A stretch of 36,963 nucleotides of DNA from a virus (Duplodnaviria; Heunggongvirae; Uroviricota; Caudoviricetes), in IMG/VR virus record IMGVR_UViG_2563366920_000001. One strand, 5' to 3'. Shown here piece by piece: positions 11,060 to 18,852 of this stretch; within the stretch, counting starts at the first letter, position 1, and each line of letters opens with the position of its first letter. The notes beneath the pieces were generated by a model. It saw only the letters and a program-made list of their open reading frames with translations, was not told the origin of the DNA and made no database searches. The position numbers and the translations under genes are program-made.

Positions 11060-12608
11060 TGTCTCTTGATCAGATCTCCTGATCAAGAGACTTCATCACC
11101 AGGTAACCCTCAACCATATCCTGAAGTCTGAACCAGCCATCCCACATGACTACCCAACCGGGGCGACCTGTGCGTTTGCTGTCATGCCATCGCCCCAGTT
11201 TCGCCAGTTTCAGACAGGCCCATTTCAGTGTCGGCATCTGTGACGGAAGCGGTTTTCCTTCCAGCTTAACCCACAGCAGTTTCCACTCTGTCGGCGTCAG
11301 TATTTTCTCACAGCTGTCATTTTGTGTTTCTTCACTGATACCGCCCTGCCGCAGGCCCAGCACCCGCACCGCGATAAACGCCTTGATAACCACCATGCGC
11401 TCGAGGTTATCCCGGGTCTGCATTCGCAGCGATTCCACACATGTACCACCACTTTTCCACGCCTTGTGGTATTCCTCTATCAGCCAGCGTCGCTCGTAAT
11501 GGCTGACGATACGTCGCGCATCGGCGGCACTCGCCACTTTTTCTGACGTCAGCAGATGCCAGCAGGCGCCGTCCTCTGCCTGCTCCCGGCAACAGACATA
11601 CGTGAGCGGGAGCGCCTGGCCGCTGTTGTCGGGATTTTTTATGCTGACTTCGCTGTAACTGATGAACATCCGGGCCTGGCGGGCTGCCCGCCCGCCTTTT
11701 TGCATCACATTTAGCGTGTGGCTTCCCGCGGTTGCTAGGACTTCCGGCAGTTCGAAGAGCTTGCCGGGTGCTTCTTCCAGCCGGCGATTCTGTGCTGCAC
11801 GCACCACGAAGCGCTGCCCGTGGCTGACTTTATAATGCAGGTAATGCCAGATATCCGCTTCCCGGTCACAGACAGTGATTACCCGTTTCTGTATCTCCCC
11901 CAGCCGTTCGGCCATGCGCTCCGAAGCCTGCTGCCAGCGGTAACTTTCTTTTTCTTCATAGGGACGTTCTTTTCGCTGGTGCTTAACACCGTAGGTGTCC
12001 GTGGCACGACTCCAGCGCTGCTGTTCGATAAGACCGACTGGCAGGGCGCTGTCGGGGGCGTACATCAGGACAGAGTGAGCCAGCAGCCCGCGCGTCTTCG
12101 GGTTAGTGGTGGTATTCCCCAGGTCATCAGATGCCGTACTGTGACTGAAGTTAATGGTGGTGGTGTCTTCCAGCGCGAGGAGCAGCGGATGAGCCTCACA
12201 TGCCCTTACAGTGGCGGTAAATCCGGCTTCGGCAATGGCTTGCGGGGACACAGACGGGTTACGTATCAGGCGGTACGCACCTTCAACCTGAGCAGTGGAC
12301 TGGGATGATTTCACAATAGAAAGACCTGCATGCTGAGCGAGAGAAGAGGCCAGTGACACAAGGCGTCGTGTACGACGCGGATCACCGAGACGGGCATGTC
12401 CAAACTGCTCGTTAGCCCATGAATAACAATCAGAAAGTACCATAACAGACCCGAAGAAAATGAAATATAAGAGAAGATCAACGGGTGAGGAAAAAGTTCA
12501 AAAAATCGCTGCCGGGGAGGAAGGAAACTACCGGATGGAAAGAGTCCCCCTAAAGCAGACTGACAGACATCACAAATCCCCGGGTGGGGATTTGTGTATA
12601 AGAGACAG
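11060..12608 (-). mobile_element. IS4-family (IS50-like) insertion sequence, about 1549 bp, with target-site duplication
   Basis: Left terminus CTGTCTCTTGATCAGATCT (11060-11078) is identical to the IS50 inside end as I recall it. Right terminus, reverse-complemented, is CTGTCTCTTATACACAAAT (ending 12608), outside-end-like. Flanking direct repeat GTTTATGC at 11052-11059 and 12609-12616. Confidence 0.8.
11070..12443 (-). CDS. tnp: Transposase (IS50/Tn5 Tnp family, 457 aa)
   Basis: ATG at 12443. Conserved blocks GDPRRTRRL, VCDREADI, RWLIEEYHKAWKSG and DSKRTG align with Tn5 transposase. ORF ends inside the inside-end-like terminus as in IS50. Confidence 0.85.
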   Translation of the reverse strand: MVLSDCYSWANEQFGHARLGDPRRTRRLVSLASSLAQHAGLSIVKSSQSTAQVEGAYRLIRNPSVSPQAIAEAGFTATVRACEAHPLLLALEDTTTINFSHSTASDDLGNTTTNPKTRGLLAHSVLMYAPDSALPVGLIEQQRWSRATDTYGVKHQRKERPYEEKESYRWQQASERMAERLGEIQKRVITVCDREADIWHYLHYKVSHGQRFVVRAAQNRRLEEAPGKLFELPEVLATAGSHTLNVMQKGGRAARQARMFISYSEVSIKNPDNSGQALPLTYVCCREQAEDGACWHLLTSEKVASAADARRIVSHYERRWLIEEYHKAWKSGGTCVESLRMQTRDNLERMVVIKAFIAVRVLGLRQGGISEETQNDSCEKILTPTEWKLLWVKLEGKPLPSQMPTLKWACLKLAKLGRWHDSKRTGRPGWVVMWDGWFRLQDMVEGYLVMKSLDQEI

Positions 12609-13535
12609 GTTTATGCAGGGGCGTGTACTGCTGGAGCCTGAGCCGGAACGTTATTCATCTTTCGCCAGTGGTGCCGTTCCCGCGGCATCACAACCGCTGG
12701 CGGATGATCCTGCTGTTCGGGCCGTGTTCCGCAATGAGGCAGTGATCCGTCGTGCTGGTGGCGTGGAATGTCTTGAAAGCTGGTTACTTCGTGAAAAAGG
12801 CTGCCAGTGGCCTCATTCCGACTGGCACAGCGAGAACATGACCACAATGCGACACGCTCCGGGCGCAATCCGTCTGTGCTGGCACTGTGATAACCAGCTG
12901 CGCGATCAGTTCACGGAACGGCTGGAATCAATGGCAACGGATAACTGTGCCCGCTGGGTGTTGTCTGTTGTGCGTCGGGATCTCGGTTTTGATGATAGTC
13001 ACGTTGTGACAATGCCGGAACTGTGCTGGTGGCTGATTCGTAATGACCTGGCGGATGCCTTACCGGAAAGTGCAGCCCGTAAGGCACTGAGATTACCAAA
13101 GCCTGTTGTGCCGTCTGTCACCCGGGAAAGTGACCTTGTGCCTTCGGTTCCTGCCACCAGCATCATCCAGGATAAGGCAAAAAAGGTGCTGGCGCTGAAA
13201 GTGGATCCGGAGTCGCCGGAGTCTTTTATGTTACGCCCAAAACGTCGCCGCTGGGTTAATGAAAAGTACACGCGCTGGGTTAAGACACAGCCGTGTGCAT
13301 GTTGTGGAAAGCCCGCTGATGATCCCCACCACCTGATAGGCCACGGTCAGGGGGGAATGGGTACAAAAGCGCATGACCTCTTTGTGTTGCCTTTGTGCAG
13401 AAAGCATCACGACGAGCTGCATGCGGATACCGTGGCATTTGAAGAGAAGTATGGCTCCCAGCTGGAGCTGATATTTCGTTTTATCGATCGCGCGCTGGCA
13501 ATTGGCGTGCTGGCCTGATTTTGTGGAGAAAGTTG

Positions 13536-13913
13536 ATGCGTGATATTCAGATGGTTCTGGATCGTTGGGGGGCATGGGCGGCGAGTGATAGTTCTGGGGT
13601 AGACTATTCGCCTATAGCTGCTGGGTTTAAAGGGCTTCTTCCCTATACAAGCAAAACACGTCAGGCTTGTTCAGATAGTGATGCATTAATTATTGAAGGT
13701 TGTCTTGCTCGTCTAAAGCAAAAAAGACCTGAAGAACACTCGCTTCTTGTTGCCCATTACCTATACGGTATCTCTAAAAGAAAGCTCGCCAAGGCTCGTA
13801 AAAAGGATGAGAAACTAATACGCATTGAGATACAGATGGCTGAGGGGTTTATTGATGGCTGCCTATCGATGTTGGAAATTAGTCTAGAGATGGACCCCGA
13901 AGTTAAAGATTGA
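13536..13913 (+). CDS. Late antiterminator Q (phage 82 / QuuD-type)
   Basis: ATG at 13536 with GGAG 7 nt upstream (ORF track starts at TTG 13521). N-terminus MRDIQMVLDRWGAWAASD...IAAGFKGL matches Q proteins of 82-like lambdoid prophages as I recall them. Confidence 0.75.
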   Translation: MRDIQMVLDRWGAWAASDSSGVDYSPIAAGFKGLLPYTSKTRQACSDSDALIIEGCLARLKQKRPEEHSLLVAHYLYGISKRKLAKARKKDEKLIRIEIQMAEGFIDGCLSMLEISLEMDPEVKD

Positions 13914-13920
13914 TTATTGA

Positions 13921-13945
13921 AGCCCGATTACTCGGGCTTTTGTTC
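13921..13945. terminator. Hairpin terminator between the convergent Q and moron genes
   Basis: AGCCCGA-TTAC-TCGGGCT stem-loop (13921-13939) followed by TTTTGTT on the plus strand. The stop codon of the minus-strand 339-aa gene lies in the loop. Confidence 0.5.
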
Positions 13946-14947
13946 CACATCTCGAACATAGAGAATTACTGCTGACTTAATGTCACCATCGACGTGTTTT
14001 GCGTTAATGCTCAAATGTACAGGCTTTCTTTCCCACTCAGCTCGCTGCAATGCTTCTTTGTTTCCGGATTCATCAAGGAAAACATCCTGAACTACGCAGG
14101 TTAGACGTTGGTCGGTATCTACGCGTCGGACCTTAACTTTGAAACTCTCTGGGTCAGTATTATTGACTTCTTCAATTCGGTAAATACCATCAATCCTCAT
14201 TTCTGATGAACGTCTACGAGCATTCGTAACCAACTCTTTCGCCATTTCAGAATCAATAGTAACGCCATCAATTTGAGCGTTATCTGAACGCACAAAGGAT
14301 TTGACCATTTGGGTTTTAGCGTCATACGACATACGGTCCATGTTATCGAGAAGTGGTTTTTCCGCAATCATTTCTGAAATAACCCGCAGGCGTTTAGTTT
14401 CTTGCTCGCTCATGATCTGCATAGTCCGGAGATGTTCTTTCTCTCCATCCTTAGCAATTTCTGCAAGGCGAATATCTTTGCGGTTGTCCAAGAACCGTTT
14501 AAATACTGTTACTCCGCCCCAGATGACTGCTGCGCCGAGAACAGTAAACATGATCTCAGTTGCGTTCATTTTACCAACAAGTTCCTGTGTGAGTTTGGTT
14601 AAAAAGCCATCAATGTTGATTTCTACTATTGAAGAACCCTGTTCTACCGTAACTTCTATTTCTAGGGCATCAAGTTCTTCTTTGGTCAGTTTGCGGACGT
14701 CAGGGACACCGTACTTGGCAAGGGCATATGATTTGTTGATTTGAGCTTGCATTTCAACAAATCCCTTCATAACTGAAGGTGTTAGCGATCTGTTGAATTT
14801 TTCACCGGTTAATCTGATGGTAAGGTTTGGCCATCCGTTGAAACTTAAACTGTCAGGTAAACCATAACCATCAAGATAGCTTTCAAGCAAATCGAAGGCT
14901 TGCTGCTCAGATTCAATGTCTACATGAATCTCATCAAACTTATCCAA
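13928..14947 (-). CDS. Hypothetical membrane protein (339 aa, one predicted TM helix); moron gene of unknown function
   Basis: Long opposite-strand ORF in a markedly AT-rich segment. TTG start at 14947 with GAGGA 7 nt upstream; first in-frame ATG is 59 codons downstream. Hydrophobic stretch IMFTVLGAAVIWGGVTVF mid-protein. No family recognised. Confidence 0.6.
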   Translation of the reverse strand: MDKFDEIHVDIESEQQAFDLLESYLDGYGLPDSLSFNGWPNLTIRLTGEKFNRSLTPSVMKGFVEMQAQINKSYALAKYGVPDVRKLTKEELDALEIEVTVEQGSSIVEINIDGFLTKLTQELVGKMNATEIMFTVLGAAVIWGGVTVFKRFLDNRKDIRLAEIAKDGEKEHLRTMQIMSEQETKRLRVISEMIAEKPLLDNMDRMSYDAKTQMVKSFVRSDNAQIDGVTIDSEMAKELVTNARRRSSEMRIDGIYRIEEVNNTDPESFKVKVRRVDTDQRLTCVVQDVFLDESGNKEALQRAEWERKPVHLSINAKHVDGDIKSAVILYVRDVEQKPE

Positions 14948-15122
14948 AAGTATGTCCTCATTCTAAGCCAACTGTCACCGTGAGGTTTGGCAACGCCTGC
15001 TTTATTTTTCGTTTTAAGTTGTGTGGCAAAAAAATAATGGAAAAACAGATAAAAATCACTAACGCGGTCCGCATTTTCTAGATTACTGTGTTAAGAGTGG
15101 TTACTTCGCCACACAGCTTAAA

Positions 15123-15145
15123 CCCGCCGCTGAGCGGTTTTTTTG
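15123..15145 (+). terminator. Candidate intrinsic terminator (possibly tR' of the late leader)
   Basis: Short GC hairpin CCGC-TGA-GCGG followed by seven T residues, in the intergenic region upstream of the late-region genes. Confidence 0.35.
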
Positions 15146-15266
15146 TACCTGTAAACTTGGTGCAGTACAGTAAACACGCTGGTGGTCGTGAATACTGACT
15201 TTTTATCTTGCTGGCTTTTTAGACAAGAGTTATTGGTATGTCATGTTAACCAGAAGGGAAAAAGAC

Positions 15267-15470
15267 ATGCTAAAACAGCAAGATATGACAGAAACCGCCG
15301 CCGTAGTCCTTCATTTCTTACCTGCTGACAAGTGGGTAACGCCACGCATGATGACGAGAACTACCGGAGTAAGCGAAGCCCGGTGCCAGTTAATACTGAC
15401 TCAGTTAGTTCTGGCGGGTCTGGCGAAGGATAACGGCGGGTATGGGAATAAATTCAGACGCTGCCAGTAA
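15267..15470 (+). CDS. Small winged-helix protein (PapI/FaeA-like suspected, about 67 aa)
   Basis: ATG at 15267 with GGGAA upstream (alternative ATG at 15243). Segment AAVVLHFLPADKWVTPRMMTRTTGVSEARCQLILTQLVLAGLAKDNGG resembles PapI/FaeA-type wHTH regulators (recollection). Confidence 0.4.
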   Translation: MLKQQDMTETAAVVLHFLPADKWVTPRMMTRTTGVSEARCQLILTQLVLAGLAKDNGGYGNKFRRCQ

Positions 15471-15620
15471 TGGCGGTTTCCTGCTGTGAAAATGGGCGGC
15501 TGGTGGGTGTTGGTAGCACCTGCCAGCCATTCGCTCATGCTTACTGGTCACAAGCGAACCACGGCCCACTGCTTTAGCGCAAAAGCAGAGTGAGCCTACC
15601 AGAGTTACGCTTACTGATCC

Positions 15621-16673
15621 ATGAAAAATACTGTAAAAATAAACAGTGTTGATTTAATCAACGCTGATTGCCTGCATTTTATTCAGTCCCTGCCTGATGA
15701 TTCCATTGACCTGATTGTTACCGATCCGCCTTACTTCAAGGTGAAACCTAACGGTTGGGACAATCAGTGGAAAGGGGACGAAGATTACCTTAAGTGGCTG
15801 GACCACTGTCTGGCCCAGTTCTGGCGGGTGTTGAAACCTGCCGGAAGCCTTTACCTGTTCTGTGGGCATCGCCTGGCATCTGATATTGAGATCATGATGC
15901 GTGAACGTTTCAACGTGCTTAACCATATCATCTGGGCGAAGCCGTCCGGACGTTGGAATGGGTGTAATAAAGAAAGTCTGCGCGCATATTTTCCTGCCAC
16001 AGAGCGCGTTCTGTTTGCTGAACATTACCAGGGGCCATATCGCGGCAAAAGTGACGGCTATGCGGCAAAAGAAAGGGAACTCAAACAGCACATAATGGCA
16101 CCGCTGATATCGTATTTCAGGGATGCTCGTGCCGAACTGGGTATAACGGCAAAACAAATTGCCGAAGCCACAGGTAAGAAAAATATGGTTTCCCACTGGT
16201 TTGGTGCCAGTCAGTGGCAGTTGCCGAATGAGGCTGACTATCGGAAGTTACAGGCACTGTTTTCCCGTATAGCGGCAGAGAAGTTTCAGGAACAACAACT
16301 GGAACAACCACACCACCAGCTGGTGGCATCTTATGATTCACTGAATCGCAAATATTCTGAATTGCTGGATGAGTTTAAATCTCTCCGGCGCTATTTCTCC
16401 GTATCAGTCTCCGTGCCTTATACCGATGTCTGGACGCATAAGCCCGTTCAGTTCTACCCGGGTAAACATCCGTGCGAGAAACCGGCGGATATGCTCCGGC
16501 AAATAATCAATGCCAGTAGTCGACCTGGTGATCTGGTTGCTGATTTCTTTATGGGATCCGGTTCCACAATAAAAGCAGCAATGGCGCTGGGGCGTCGGGC
16601 GTTAGGTGTTGAACTTGAGTCAGAGCGGTTTAATCAGACGGTGAAAGAGGTAAGTGAACTGGTGGGGAAATAA
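15621..16673 (+). CDS. DNA methyltransferase, N4/N6 family (beta-class, 350 aa)
   Basis: ATG at 15621. Motif IV DPPY near the N-terminus (DLIVTDPPYFK) and AdoMet motif I near the C-terminus (DLVADFFMGSGSTIKAA), the beta-class order. Confidence 0.85.
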   Translation: MKNTVKINSVDLINADCLHFIQSLPDDSIDLIVTDPPYFKVKPNGWDNQWKGDEDYLKWLDHCLAQFWRVLKPAGSLYLFCGHRLASDIEIMMRERFNVLNHIIWAKPSGRWNGCNKESLRAYFPATERVLFAEHYQGPYRGKSDGYAAKERELKQHIMAPLISYFRDARAELGITAKQIAEATGKKNMVSHWFGASQWQLPNEADYRKLQALFSRIAAEKFQEQQLEQPHHQLVASYDSLNRKYSELLDEFKSLRRYFSVSVSVPYTDVWTHKPVQFYPGKHPCEKPADMLRQIINASSRPGDLVADFFMGSGSTIKAAMALGRRALGVELESERFNQTVKEVSELVGK

Positions 16674-16680
16674 TTCTGGT

Positions 16681-16705
16681 GGCCACGTTGCGTGGCCTTT
16701 TTATT
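16681..16705 (+). terminator. Intrinsic terminator between methyltransferase and holin
   Basis: GGCCACG-TTG-CGTGGCC hairpin followed by TTTTTATTT. Confidence 0.5.
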
Positions 16706-16749: not shown

Positions 16750-17085
16750 ATGTCTCATAACCCAAATACCTGGCCGGACTGGCTGGAGTTGTTTCAGAGC
16801 TGGTGGCGTGGAGACACACCGCTGGGTGCAGTGATTATGTCGATCGTTATGGCTGGTTTGCGCATCGCCTATTTTGGCGGTGGTGGTGGCTGGAAGCGAA
16901 AAACGCTCGAGATTTTGCTATGTGGCGCTCTGACGCTGACCTTTGCATCCGCTCTTGAATATGTCGGATGGCCTAAATCGCTTTCTGTTGCCATTGGTGG
17001 TGGCGTGGGGCTGATCGGTGTCGATGCTATTCGTGGGGCTGCAATGCGAGTAATCGGTAACAAATTTGGTAGCTCGAAGGAGTAA
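16750..17085 (+). CDS. Holin (lambda S-like, 111 aa, three hydrophobic segments)
   Basis: ATG at 16750 (ORF track begins at an upstream GTG). Three hydrophobic stretches and a charged C-terminus. Immediately upstream of the endolysin. Confidence 0.65.
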   Translation: MSHNPNTWPDWLELFQSWWRGDTPLGAVIMSIVMAGLRIAYFGGGGGWKRKTLEILLCGALTLTFASALEYVGWPKSLSVAIGGGVGLIGVDAIRGAAMRVIGNKFGSSKE

Positions 17086-17088
17086 TTT

Positions 17089-17565
17089 ATGCAGGCACTA
17101 AATTCCCAGCGTAAAGCTTTCCTGGATATGGTGGCATGGTCAGAAGGAACGGATAACGGGCGACAACCGACACGTAACCACGGTTATGATGTTATTGTTG
17201 GTGGCGAACTGTTCACTGATTACTCCGATCACCCTCGCAAACTTGTCACGCTAAACCCCAAACTCAAATCAACAGCTGCCGGACGTTACCAGCTTCTTTC
17301 ACGCTGGTGGGATGCTTACCGTAAACAGCTTGGCCTGAAAGATTTTTCTCCAGAAAGCCAGGACGCTGTAGCTCTGCAGCAGATTAAAGAGCGTGGTGCT
17401 TTACCGATGATTGACCGCGGCAGTATTCGTCAGGCAATCGACCGTTGCAGCAATATCTGGGCGTCGTTACCTGGTGCAGGTTACGGTCAGTATGAACATA
17501 AAATCGGTGACCTGATTGCCCGATTTAAAAAAGCTGGTGGGGTAGTAAATGAGGCTGAGATATAA
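17089..17565 (+). CDS. Endolysin, lambda R-type lytic transglycosylase (158 aa)
   Basis: ATG at 17089 with GAAGGAG. Near-identical to lambda R over NQRKAFLDMVAWSEGTDNGRQ...HGYDVIVGGELFTDYSDHPRKLVTLNPKLKSTAAGRYQLLSRWWDAYRKQLGLKDFSP (recalled). Confidence 0.9.
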   Translation: MQALNSQRKAFLDMVAWSEGTDNGRQPTRNHGYDVIVGGELFTDYSDHPRKLVTLNPKLKSTAAGRYQLLSRWWDAYRKQLGLKDFSPESQDAVALQQIKERGALPMIDRGSIRQAIDRCSNIWASLPGAGYGQYEHKIGDLIARFKKAGGVVNEAEI

Positions 17566-18122: not shown

Positions 18123-18428
18123 TTATTCGTAGTTGTCACCAGGGAAGTATTCCTGAAACTTTGATTTTGGGAGCTGGGTTTTCGCGAAGTTCGCAAGCCT
18201 TCCTCTTGTAAGCATGTAGTCACACCCACCTTCTTGTTTGAGAAGGTCACCAGCTAATGTCCGATACACAACGTCACTTCGCAAAATTTCAATGGTGGAA
18301 TTCCTGATGAGAAATGTTTCACACATCGGGCATCTAATTAACCAAGCGGTATCACGGTTCTGCCAGGTCGCATCTGAATTGCAAGCCGGGCAGCATTTCT
18401 GATCTTCTTGTCCTATGACCATTGTCAT
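18123..18428 (-). CDS. Hypothetical zinc-ribbon protein (101 aa), opposite-strand moron in the bor position
   Basis: ATG at 18428-18426. Two Cys pairs (CCPAC...CPMC) about 20 residues apart. Protein-like composition. Not similar to lambda Bor as I recall it. Confidence 0.5.
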   Translation of the reverse strand: MTMVIGQEDQKCCPACNSDATWQNRDTAWLIRCPMCETFLIRNSTIEILRSDVVYRTLAGDLLKQEGGCDYMLTRGRLANFAKTQLPKSKFQEYFPGDNYE

Positions 18429-18501
18429 GCTCTCGCATAGTGAAGGAATTTTCAGATTAACTCATTTTCAGACGCATCGTAATGGCTTAAGGAAACAATT
18501 A

Positions 18502-18852
18502 ATGCCACCACGTACACCAAAAGCCTGCCGCGTTCGCGGTTGCCGCAATACCACTACTGACCCGTCAGGCTATTGCGAAAGCCACAAAAGCGAAGGCTGG
18601 AAGCAATACAAACCAGGCCTGTCACGTCATCAGCGCGGCTACGGTTCGAAGTGGGACAGTATCCGCGCGCGTGTCCTGAAGCGTGACAAAGGCCTGTGTC
18701 AGTTATGTCTGCGTGCTGGTGTGGTGCGTGAGGCGAAGACCGTTGACCACATCATCCCTAAATCGCATGGCGGCACTGATGTCGACAGTAATCTGCAGAG
18801 TTTGTGCTGGCCGTGTCATAAGGCGAAGACGGCCCGTGAACGGCTGAAGTAA
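18502..18852 (+). CDS. HNH endonuclease (terminase-associated)
   Basis: ATG at 18502 with AAGGAA. Cys-rich N-terminus plus HNH core (VDHIIPKSHGGTDVDSNLQSLCWPCH), immediately upstream of terminase as in HK97-like phages. Confidence 0.8.
   Translation: MPPRTPKACRVRGCRNTTTDPSGYCESHKSEGWKQYKPGLSRHQRGYGSKWDSIRARVLKRDKGLCQLCLRAGVVREAKTVDHIIPKSHGGTDVDSNLQSLCWPCHKAKTARERLK

Follow-up and report, generated by a model that had tools for sequence, protein, structure and literature searches.

The stretch analysed here (the window) is the 36,963-nucleotide (nt) IMG/VR virus record IMGVR_UViG_2563366920_000001, assigned to the Caudoviricetes; it is a lambdoid prophage. Between its antiterminator gene Q and its lysis genes lie a small winged-helix gene and a beta-class adenine methyltransferase gene, and the 150-nt gap between the two holds a covarying structured element that is the most interesting feature of the locus. 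An earlier note on this DNA had described a late-region cassette with the two genes bracketed by terminators; the small open reading frame (ORF), the methyltransferase and both terminators are all present, at most a few bases from where it had drawn them, and the placement between Q and the lysis genes holds. That note overlooked the structured element and the relationship of the methyltransferase to M.EcoGII. The core of the cassette is as follows (aa, amino acids):

15267-15470, plus strand: small winged-helix protein, 67 aa (alternative start 15243, 75 aa); phrog_331, E 1.9e-26, and AlphaFold
15471-15620: spacer between the small ORF and the methyltransferase gene, 150 nt, containing the structured element
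15484-15620, strand not assigned: conserved structured element, ~135 nt; covariation and covariance model
15621-16673, plus strand: M.EcoGII-family beta-class N6-adenine methyltransferase, 350 aa; PF01555, E 1.3e-42

A covarying fold in the spacer

The gap between the two genes is conserved in nucleotide sequence more than the small ORF is in protein sequence: its mean column identity is 75%, while identity between the small proteins falls to 43-67%. Its length stays within 134-154 nt in 36 of 37 loci, mostly at 149-151 nt. The conserved segment fits a fold of five helices:

P1, 15493-15497 with 15564-15568: closes a three-way junction of P2 and P3
P2, 15498-15509 with 15517-15528: within the junction
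P3, 15530-15539 with 15549-15558: within the junction
P4, 15569-15575 with 15582-15588: hairpin after the junction
P5, 15589-15595 with 15609-15615: weak helix adjoining the start codon

Two alignments bear on this fold. In the first, made with MAFFT only, 81.5% of the cells are paired, against 31-46% when the partners are slid by 1-3 columns; 17 pairs have changed on both sides, and none of 500 shuffles reaches the observed values. The second and wider one was, unlike the first, fitted to a covariance model, which had been built from 35 spacer sequences of loci retrieved with the small protein. Here 79% of cells are paired (32-43% when slid) and 38 of 41 pairs have changed on both sides; single positions of P2 show as many as five or six kinds of pair. 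Covariation scores 0.413, and sliding the partners never brings it above 0.113. The long-range helix P1 is compensated in Aeromonas (AUGGGC/GCCCAU to CGUGGC/GCCACG) and in Mixta.

Coding potential of the spacer was rejected on its 1-nt insertions and deletions and its lack of 3-nt periodicity. Two further pairings were considered and rejected: a kissing contact between the P2 and P5 loops (UGGUAG/CUACCA in the window), whose P2 loop is not conserved (UGUCAC, CGGGAA, CUGGAA), and a helix of the end of the small ORF (CAGUA) with methyltransferase codons 3-5 (UACUG), taken from a single-sequence fold, whose duplex energies across 33 loci are no better than those of shuffles (mean z -0.09).

A search of 15471-15620 against Rfam 15 gave no match at the gathering threshold and, within the window, none at E<=10, and the N15, VHML, Val-yong3, phiARM81ld and Providencia loci gave no Rfam 15 match at E<=1. 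The element is a candidate RNA family absent from Rfam 15.

Distribution of the element

The covariance model finds the element 5' of methyltransferase homologues that have no adjacent small ORF, in PY54 (E 4e-14), Serratia OS31 (4e-13), VHML (6e-10), Val-yong3 (3e-9), N15 (1e-8), YDC107_1 (3e-7), and phiARM81ld (1e-5). Of 100 IMG/VR loci collected through methyltransferases of the VHML and Aeromonas types, 69 have it as well, in every case on the gene strand and directly 5' of an ORF.

A start codon can be placed at the 3' end of the element in all examined loci but one. It opens either the methyltransferase itself (MKNTV...) or, in Vibrio and Aeromonas phages, a Com-like ORF of 36-71 aa that carries a Cys-x2-Cys...Cys-x2-Cys pattern and precedes or overlaps the methyltransferase; the ORF of Aeromonas phiARM81ld matches the Mu Com profile PF10122 with 27.9 bits (cutoff 22.9). 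In the window, the element ends 5 nt before the AUG, and no Shine-Dalgarno sequence is recognisable at the methyltransferase start, either there (GCUUACUGAUCC-AUG) or in most lineages.

Of the 76 element-bearing loci in the divergent sets, 15 show a clear homologue of the winged-helix gene, ending 3-30 nt (mostly 3-15 nt) before the model match, and in N15/PY54-like loci a gp51-like ORF lies upstream of an annotated promoter and terminator. Given this distribution of loci, the constant partners are the element and the methyltransferase, and a small nucleic-acid-binding protein is a frequent but replaceable third.

The methyltransferase

The methyltransferase matches PF01555 (N6_N4_Mtase) over residues 29-341 with 146.6 bits (cutoff 26.7). 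Its DPPY (motif IV, residues 35-38) and FMGSG (motif I, FxGxG, residues 310-314) are invariant in an 11-member alignment that reaches from E. coli to Vibrio; because DPPY lies N-terminal to FxGxG, the enzyme is of the beta class, as had been proposed, and the solved structures nearest to it are likewise of beta-class enzymes (M.RsrI, M1.MboII, and CcrM among them). It is identical to M.EcoGII at 283 of 349 positions (81%, 2 gaps), the reference having been machine-read, with a few reading errors, from the supplement of the SUPREM paper (PMC11551740). M.EcoGII is borne on a prophage, methylates adenine in any context in DNA and in RNA, and needs no partner for its activity in vivo or in vitro; the lysogen does not express it, and constitutive expression is harmful. 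Its authors describe the family as very large, with members in E. coli prophages and in phages of enterobacteria such as 1720a-02, and suggest an anti-restriction role after induction (PMC5778455). The 1720a-02 homologue also matches the window methyltransferase. By its sequence, the window enzyme is a new member of this known and characterised family of non-specific adenine methylases, and its 81% identity alone would predict that this allele, too, methylates adenine in any context.

Codons 2-9 of the methyltransferase (within 15621-15647) are nearly frozen at synonymous sites (Thr4 is ACT in 37/37, Lys2 AAA in 29/29, Ile7 ATA in 23/23, and Asn8 AAC in 26/26), and from codon 12 on such sites vary freely among the 37 distinct loci. 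The frozen codons could reflect a constraint on translation initiation, an antisense promoter, or an extension of the structured element.

Residues ~160-260, between the catalytic motif and the S-adenosylmethionine (SAM) motif, form a putative target-recognition region, in which we noted weak HTH_3/Pou-like matches (E 0.04-0.15, residues 158-193) and a predicted coiled stretch. No restriction-endonuclease ORF is annotated or was detected between the methyltransferase and the holin, and a profile search with the small protein gave no HTH_3 match, so it does not group with the C-proteins that control restriction-modification systems. One Providencia locus (L027) has an in-frame stop at methyltransferase codon 46.

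The small winged-helix protein and its pairing with the methyltransferase

The small ORF is a real and conserved gene. It had been drawn from 15243 to 15470 (75 aa), and its start is better placed at the second ATG, 15267 (67 aa), which RefSeq uses (WP_000917724.1), to which the start of most homologues is equivalent, and which alone is preceded by a purine-rich stretch (GAAGGGAAAAAGAC-ATG). The protein has no Pfam or NCBIfam assignment and belongs to phrog_331, annotated as of unknown function; its 87 homologues, down to ~50% identity, occur in Escherichia, Salmonella and Plesiomonas, and a few are annotated as TrmB-family regulators. Helix 3 (C-Q-L-I-L-T-Q-L..A-G-L) is invariant or nearly so in 36 distinct genes, with each residue written by 2-7 different codons, which shows selection on the protein.

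The AlphaFold model (predicted local distance difference test score, pLDDT, 83.8) is a three-helix bundle followed by a beta-hairpin wing, in agreement with the winged helix of the earlier note, and structural comparison ranks Zalpha first among generic winged-helix neighbours. The same note had called the protein PapI/FaeA-like. No FaeA match (PF04703) was found at E<=1, the best Pfam matches being DnaD_N (0.081) and TrmB (0.26), and no PapI chain appeared in a PDB profile search at E<=10; with no preferential structural similarity either, we rejected membership of that family, although the fold class is right.

More distant relatives are probably the gp51-like ORFs of N15/PY54-like loci (75-78 aa), which share the MTE.A motif and the helix-3 pattern (hhalign 91%, E 1e-6). 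A 64-aa Aeromonas protein, p54, was considered as a relative and rejected.

Of 33 loci retrieved through the small protein alone, on one-genome-per-species contigs, 30 carry the small ORF with the methyltransferase directly downstream, a recurrence that is not chance. The loci include ones from Mangrovibacter, Plesiomonas, Buttiauxella, Providencia, Proteus, Mixta, Kluyvera, Salmonella, Citrobacter, Klebsiella, and Scandinavium. The small protein matches 56 phage records, and a 1.86-kb segment holding the cassette matches 51, including SfV, cdtI, mEp460, Ayreon, and Stx2c (Shiga toxin 2c) phages, as well as 1880 of 5426 complete E. coli genomes. In SfV, the cassette genes are orf47 and orf48, with both terminators annotated, and the cassette is already annotated in cdtI, mEp460, and Ayreon too. 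Gene order is the same in SfV, Ayreon, cdtI, phiP27, Stx2a/2c, Hafnia, and Providencia phages, and in phiP27 and the Stx2a/2c phages the pair lies directly 5' of tRNAs and stx2. Distant methyltransferase homologues (48-65% identity) adjoin holin or lysis genes in N15, PY54, phiKO2, Serratia OS31, VHML, and Vibrio and Aeromonas phages.

Two further loci hold decayed copies: in Mangrovibacter yixingensis (L012, 3501-3569), the small ORF has a premature stop and the element and methyltransferase are intact, and an enterobacterial locus (L042, 3462-3787) keeps a truncated small ORF and the element and has lost the methyltransferase. We also noted a block 5' of the small ORF, CTTGCTG(N11-13)CA(A/G)AGTTAY, that is conserved to Providencia and Hafnia though its flanks diverge, and whose outer bases could pair (CUUG/CAAG, CUGG/CCAG).

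Late-operon context

The features around the cassette, in order, are these:

12460-13518: DUF968/HNH gene, before Q
13533-13913, plus strand: antiterminator Q, Q21 family; PF06530, E 1.1e-52, and RefSeq annotation in an identical locus
13928-14947, minus strand: 339-aa moron-like ORF between Q and the late promoter region; phrog_6191 (annotated as of unknown function), E 1.6e-152
15059-15104, plus strand: inferred PR'/Q-loading region; block conserved only among loci with a Q21-family Q
15123-15144, plus strand: tR'-like intrinsic terminator, short stem and T7; position annotated as a terminator in SfV and Ayreon
15207-15241, plus strand: conserved block CTTGCTG...CA(A/G)AGTTAY, 5' of the small ORF; alignment from E. 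coli to Providencia and Hafnia
16681-16705, plus strand: strong intrinsic terminator between methyltransferase and holin; annotated in SfV and Ayreon, same position in N15
16750-17085, plus strand: lambda-S-family holin, start of the lysis cassette; PF05106, E 6.1e-27, and RefSeq annotation
17089-17565: lysozyme R, 3' of the holin; Rz is also present in the lysis cassette

A 295-nt intergenic stretch precedes the small ORF and includes the short hairpin and T7 (15126-15144). When the 300 nt upstream of the small ORF are aligned across loci, those with a Q21-family Q share a block composed of CTAACGCGGTCCGCA (15059-15073), a -10-like hexamer TAGATT/TATTGT and TGTTAAGAGTGGTyAC, followed by the terminator; in the window the hexamer is TAGATT at 15079-15084, and TGTTAAGAGTGGTTAC occupies 15089-15104. 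Loci with another Q (SfV, Ayreon, Hafnia, Providencia) have unrelated sequence in place of the block and keep the terminator at the same place. Because the block tracks the type of Q while the terminator is shared, we infer that PR' and Q loading lie at ~15059-15104 and tR' at 15123-15144, which fits the earlier proposal of a PR' within 14948-15120. The tR' position is homologous to stronger hairpins in relatives. The second hairpin, at 16681-16697, has 7 pairs, 6 of them G-C, followed by TTTTTATTT. In N15, the methyltransferase homologue lies between an annotated promoter and terminator on one side and a second terminator, before the holin, on the other.

Q of the window matches the Q21 structures 6P18/6JNX distantly (E 4.6e-4). 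The 339-aa ORF, to which Pfam and NCBIfam profile searches gave no assignment, converges on Q from the reverse strand; since cdtI and Stx2a_WGPS2 carry other reverse-strand genes at that position, the gap between Q and PR' looks like a moron hotspot.

Some sub-threshold Rfam matches fall in this region. The minus strand at 15112-15248 resembles the Salmonella small RNA (sRNA) STnc130 (25 bits, E 0.52) through the reversed tR' hairpin, probably by chance or as a bidirectional terminator. The Hfq-binding sRNA isrJ is matched with 25-29 bits (gathering score 37) in Providencia between Q and the small ORF, overlapping the terminator (L006, 2487-2573; terminator 2551-2572), and in Vibrio Val-yong3 ~70 nt upstream of the element (L047, 2093-2160); IsrJ-like RNAs might be terminated late-promoter transcripts.

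Farther off, a 145-aa ORF beyond the lysis genes (18415-18852) with an HNH motif (DHIIPKSHGG...N...CWPCH), like SfV orf53, is probably a terminase-associated HNH endonuclease, and a tRNA-Thr (CGU) at 1369-1444, the sole Rfam or ARAGORN match in the window, may mark the prophage integration site.

Proposed mechanism and alternatives

The interpretation we favour, and consider probable though far from secure, is that the winged-helix protein, the structured element and the M.EcoGII-type methylase form a widespread accessory module, heading the Q-dependent late operon, in which the element gates translation of a toxic enzyme. In the lysogen, transcription from PR' (~15060-15100) would stop at tR' (15123-15144); upon induction, Q-modified polymerase would read through tR' and through the 16681-16705 terminator into the lysis genes. 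Because Q would be needed to pass tR', the methyltransferase would be made only late, and it would presumably hypermethylate replicating phage DNA before packaging and so protect it from restriction. The toxicity of the enzyme leads us to propose that control has a second layer, after transcription: the element, which ends just before a start codon without a Shine-Dalgarno sequence, may gate or limit translation, either by folding as an mRNA leader or by serving a cis-antisense RNA as target or template, and the small nucleic-acid-binding protein (a winged helix here, a Com-like zinc ribbon in Vibrio and Aeromonas) would, by analogy, be its trans-acting partner. A bolder extension, which we offer tentatively and would expect to fail more often than hold, is that the element represents a new class of phage regulatory RNA (leader, cis-antisense, or sense/antisense pair) that serves M.EcoGII-family hypermethylases specifically, in temperate phages of the lambdoid, N15-like, VHML-like, and Aeromonas/Vibrio types, with interchangeable small proteins serving as a translational safety switch that limits the methylase to the last minutes of the lytic cycle.

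Several observations weigh against this interpretation. On the gene strand, the paired columns hold more A.C mismatches (182) than G.U pairs (99), and RNAalifold gives lower energies for the minus strand than for the gene strand in two alignments (-40.3 against -18.9 kcal/mol in A5, -28.3 against -14.3 kcal/mol in A3). P5, the helix nearest the start codon, is poorly supported, with 56% of cells paired in the wider alignment. The hairpin at tR' (15126-15138, then T7) has 5 pairs only and is weak. Palindromy of P4 would also fit a double-stranded DNA operator. A few loci, such as Serratia OS31, have the element and neither a winged-helix nor a Com-like gene, so the small protein cannot be the obligatory ligand of the element, and because M.EcoGII is active alone, neither partner is needed for catalysis (PMC5778455).

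In an alternative that we regard as possible but rather doubtful, a cis-antisense small RNA on the minus strand overlaps the initiation region of the methyltransferase and silences the toxic gene in lysogens, as in type I toxin-antitoxin systems or CopA/CopT; in that case the covariation would stem from the antisense RNA, or from both partners. Besides the RNAalifold energies, 42 of 52 sequences, folded singly, reach their lower minimum free energy on the minus strand, but once normalised by shuffling to correct for composition, the z-scores are nearly equal, at about -4 on both strands (-4.15 and -3.7). In P3, the plus strand has 93 A.C cells, which would read as G.U on the minus strand, against 10 G.U cells; in P5, and in the P2 of Enterobacterales, it is the gene strand that carries G.U pairs. 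A conserved U-rich tract comes after P1/P2 when the minus strand is read, and the P2 and U-run of the N15 reverse strand score as terminator-like, but the tract is short and 5 nt from P2. The near-invariant codons 2-9 read on that strand as TAnnnT hexamers in 60-69% of 84 loci, although conservation of the sequence that encodes the N-terminus, MKNTV(K/N)(I/L), may be enough to explain these hexamers. A conserved sigma-70 promoter for such an RNA was rejected by eye for want of a -35/-10 pair with workable spacing, and a consensus scan of the window, N15, VHML, and Providencia found no promoter on the minus strand.

A second alternative makes the winged-helix protein a subunit or adaptor of the methyltransferase that alters its choice of substrate or restrains it; we think this unlikely. 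Its precedent is PNB-2 of the Stx phage PA8, a small winged-helix protein that forms a 1:1 complex with the MT-A70-type methyltransferase M.EcoPA8orf6770P and shifts its substrate preference, redirecting it to 16S rRNA (PMC10810198), and RNA is likewise a substrate of M.EcoGII. The tight synteny of the pair fits a physical partnership, as does helix 3 (RCQLILTQLxxAGL), which is unusually hydrophobic as well as invariant and selected at the protein level. The best sequence and Foldseek matches of the small protein, although weak, are the N-terminal winged-helix dimerisation domains of SAM-dependent O-methyltransferases; however, these matches are not significant (E 0.019; Foldseek E>=2.8e-3). 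Moreover, PNB-2 and its methyltransferase are unrelated proteins, the full activity of M.EcoGII calls for no subunit, many methyltransferase homologues have no small protein, and in N15-like loci the homologous ORF lies on the far side of a promoter and terminator, so co-expression is not required.

We consider it improbable that the spacer is instead a set of DNA-level operators or palindromes bound by a dimeric protein, possibly the winged-helix protein, that controls a local promoter. P4 speaks for this, since in most lineages its palindrome runs through the apical loop (GCGC, GUGCAC, ACGCGU, UGCGCA, CUGCAG, AUCGAU, GUCGAC, UGCA; in the window, GCTTTAGCGCAAAAGC) and its arms, GCTTT/AAAGC, are strongly conserved next to a winged-helix gene; a palindromic loop could equally serve loop-loop (kissing) dimerisation. 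However, P1 pairs bases ~70 nt apart around P2 and P3, with compensated changes, and the P2 and P3 loops are long and non-palindromic on freely covarying stems, which are traits of single-strand folding and favour such a fold for the junction at least; the element is also present where there is no winged-helix gene.

The model of the earlier note, in which a PapI/FaeA-type regulator and the methyltransferase form a site-specific, methylation-dependent switch, is very hard to credit despite a compatible size and fold and the adjacency of the genes, because no FaeA/PapI similarity appeared by profile, PDB sequence search or fold ranking, the genes lie in a lytic late operon rather than in a heritable phase-variation context, and an enzyme of the sequence-non-specific M.EcoGII family cannot be expected to write a site-specific mark.

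Relation to known systems

The enzyme family and the existence of the cassette were already known. For its strict pairing with a conserved winged-helix gene, and for the covarying structured element across phage lineages, we found no description in the searched literature; searches for such an RNA motif, for regulation of N15 gene 52, and for EcoGII in a lambdoid context returned nothing relevant. M.EcoGII is widely used as a tool enzyme for non-specific N6-methyladenine (m6A) footprinting of DNA and RNA. The cassette, which roughly one in three complete E. coli genomes matches and which immediately precedes stx2 in several Shiga-toxin phages, carries a conserved element and a small winged-helix protein that suggest an undescribed control on this toxic enzyme, and the element with its alternative small proteins offers a testable handle on how phages silence and then deploy a toxic methylase. 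Any effect that the element or the small protein may have on timing, or on which substrate is chosen, would bear on anti-restriction strategies and on late-operon, hence Stx, expression.

The closest characterised relatives are M.EcoGII and M.EcoGI, from prophages of E. coli O104:H4 C227-11 (PMC5778455), which share the prophage setting and the beta-class motif order, with 349 aa against 350 here. The activity of the window enzyme is predicted from similarity. The published work cloned the ORF alone, and its searched text does not mention a small upstream ORF, a leader element, or the position between tR' and holin, and the word 'upstream' is absent from it (PMC5778455). In its position, the cassette resembles the late morons of the stx type, controlled by Q, PR', and tR' (PMC7547250; bioRxiv 10.1101/651190), filling the same slot between tR' and lysis genes as stx and tRNA genes. 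It differs from them in carrying a DNA-modifying enzyme, equipped with a terminator and a leader element of its own, and in that a reverse-strand gene separates Q from PR'; the StxS paper does not mention the methyltransferase.

Two other systems share a small winged-helix protein with the locus. PNB-2 is likewise encoded just upstream of a phage methyltransferase, with the difference that its partner is of the MT-A70 family and lies at another phage locus; the PA8 phage is not among the phage records matching the small protein, and the search thus gave no sign of a sequence relation between the two. PapI/FaeA (PF04703) are alike in length (~70 aa) and in fold and differ in genomic context and partner enzyme.

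The nearest parallel in organisation is the com-mom operon of phage Mu, where the small zinc-ribbon protein Com binds an mRNA leader and activates translation of a toxic DNA-modification gene, whose product, Mom, is not a methyltransferase. Both loci encode a toxic, late DNA-modification enzyme and, immediately upstream, a small nucleic-acid-binding protein, and in both the start of translation lies at a structured region. A Com-family zinc ribbon is even encoded before or overlapping the methyltransferase in the Aeromonas and Vibrio relatives, whereas the window protein is a winged helix and has no zinc ribbon. The structured regions differ as well: Mu has a short hairpin, and the element described here is a multi-helix fold of ~135 nt that, where a Com-like ORF is present, lies upstream of it. 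Com-like binding to this element would be an extension of the Mu model by analogy.

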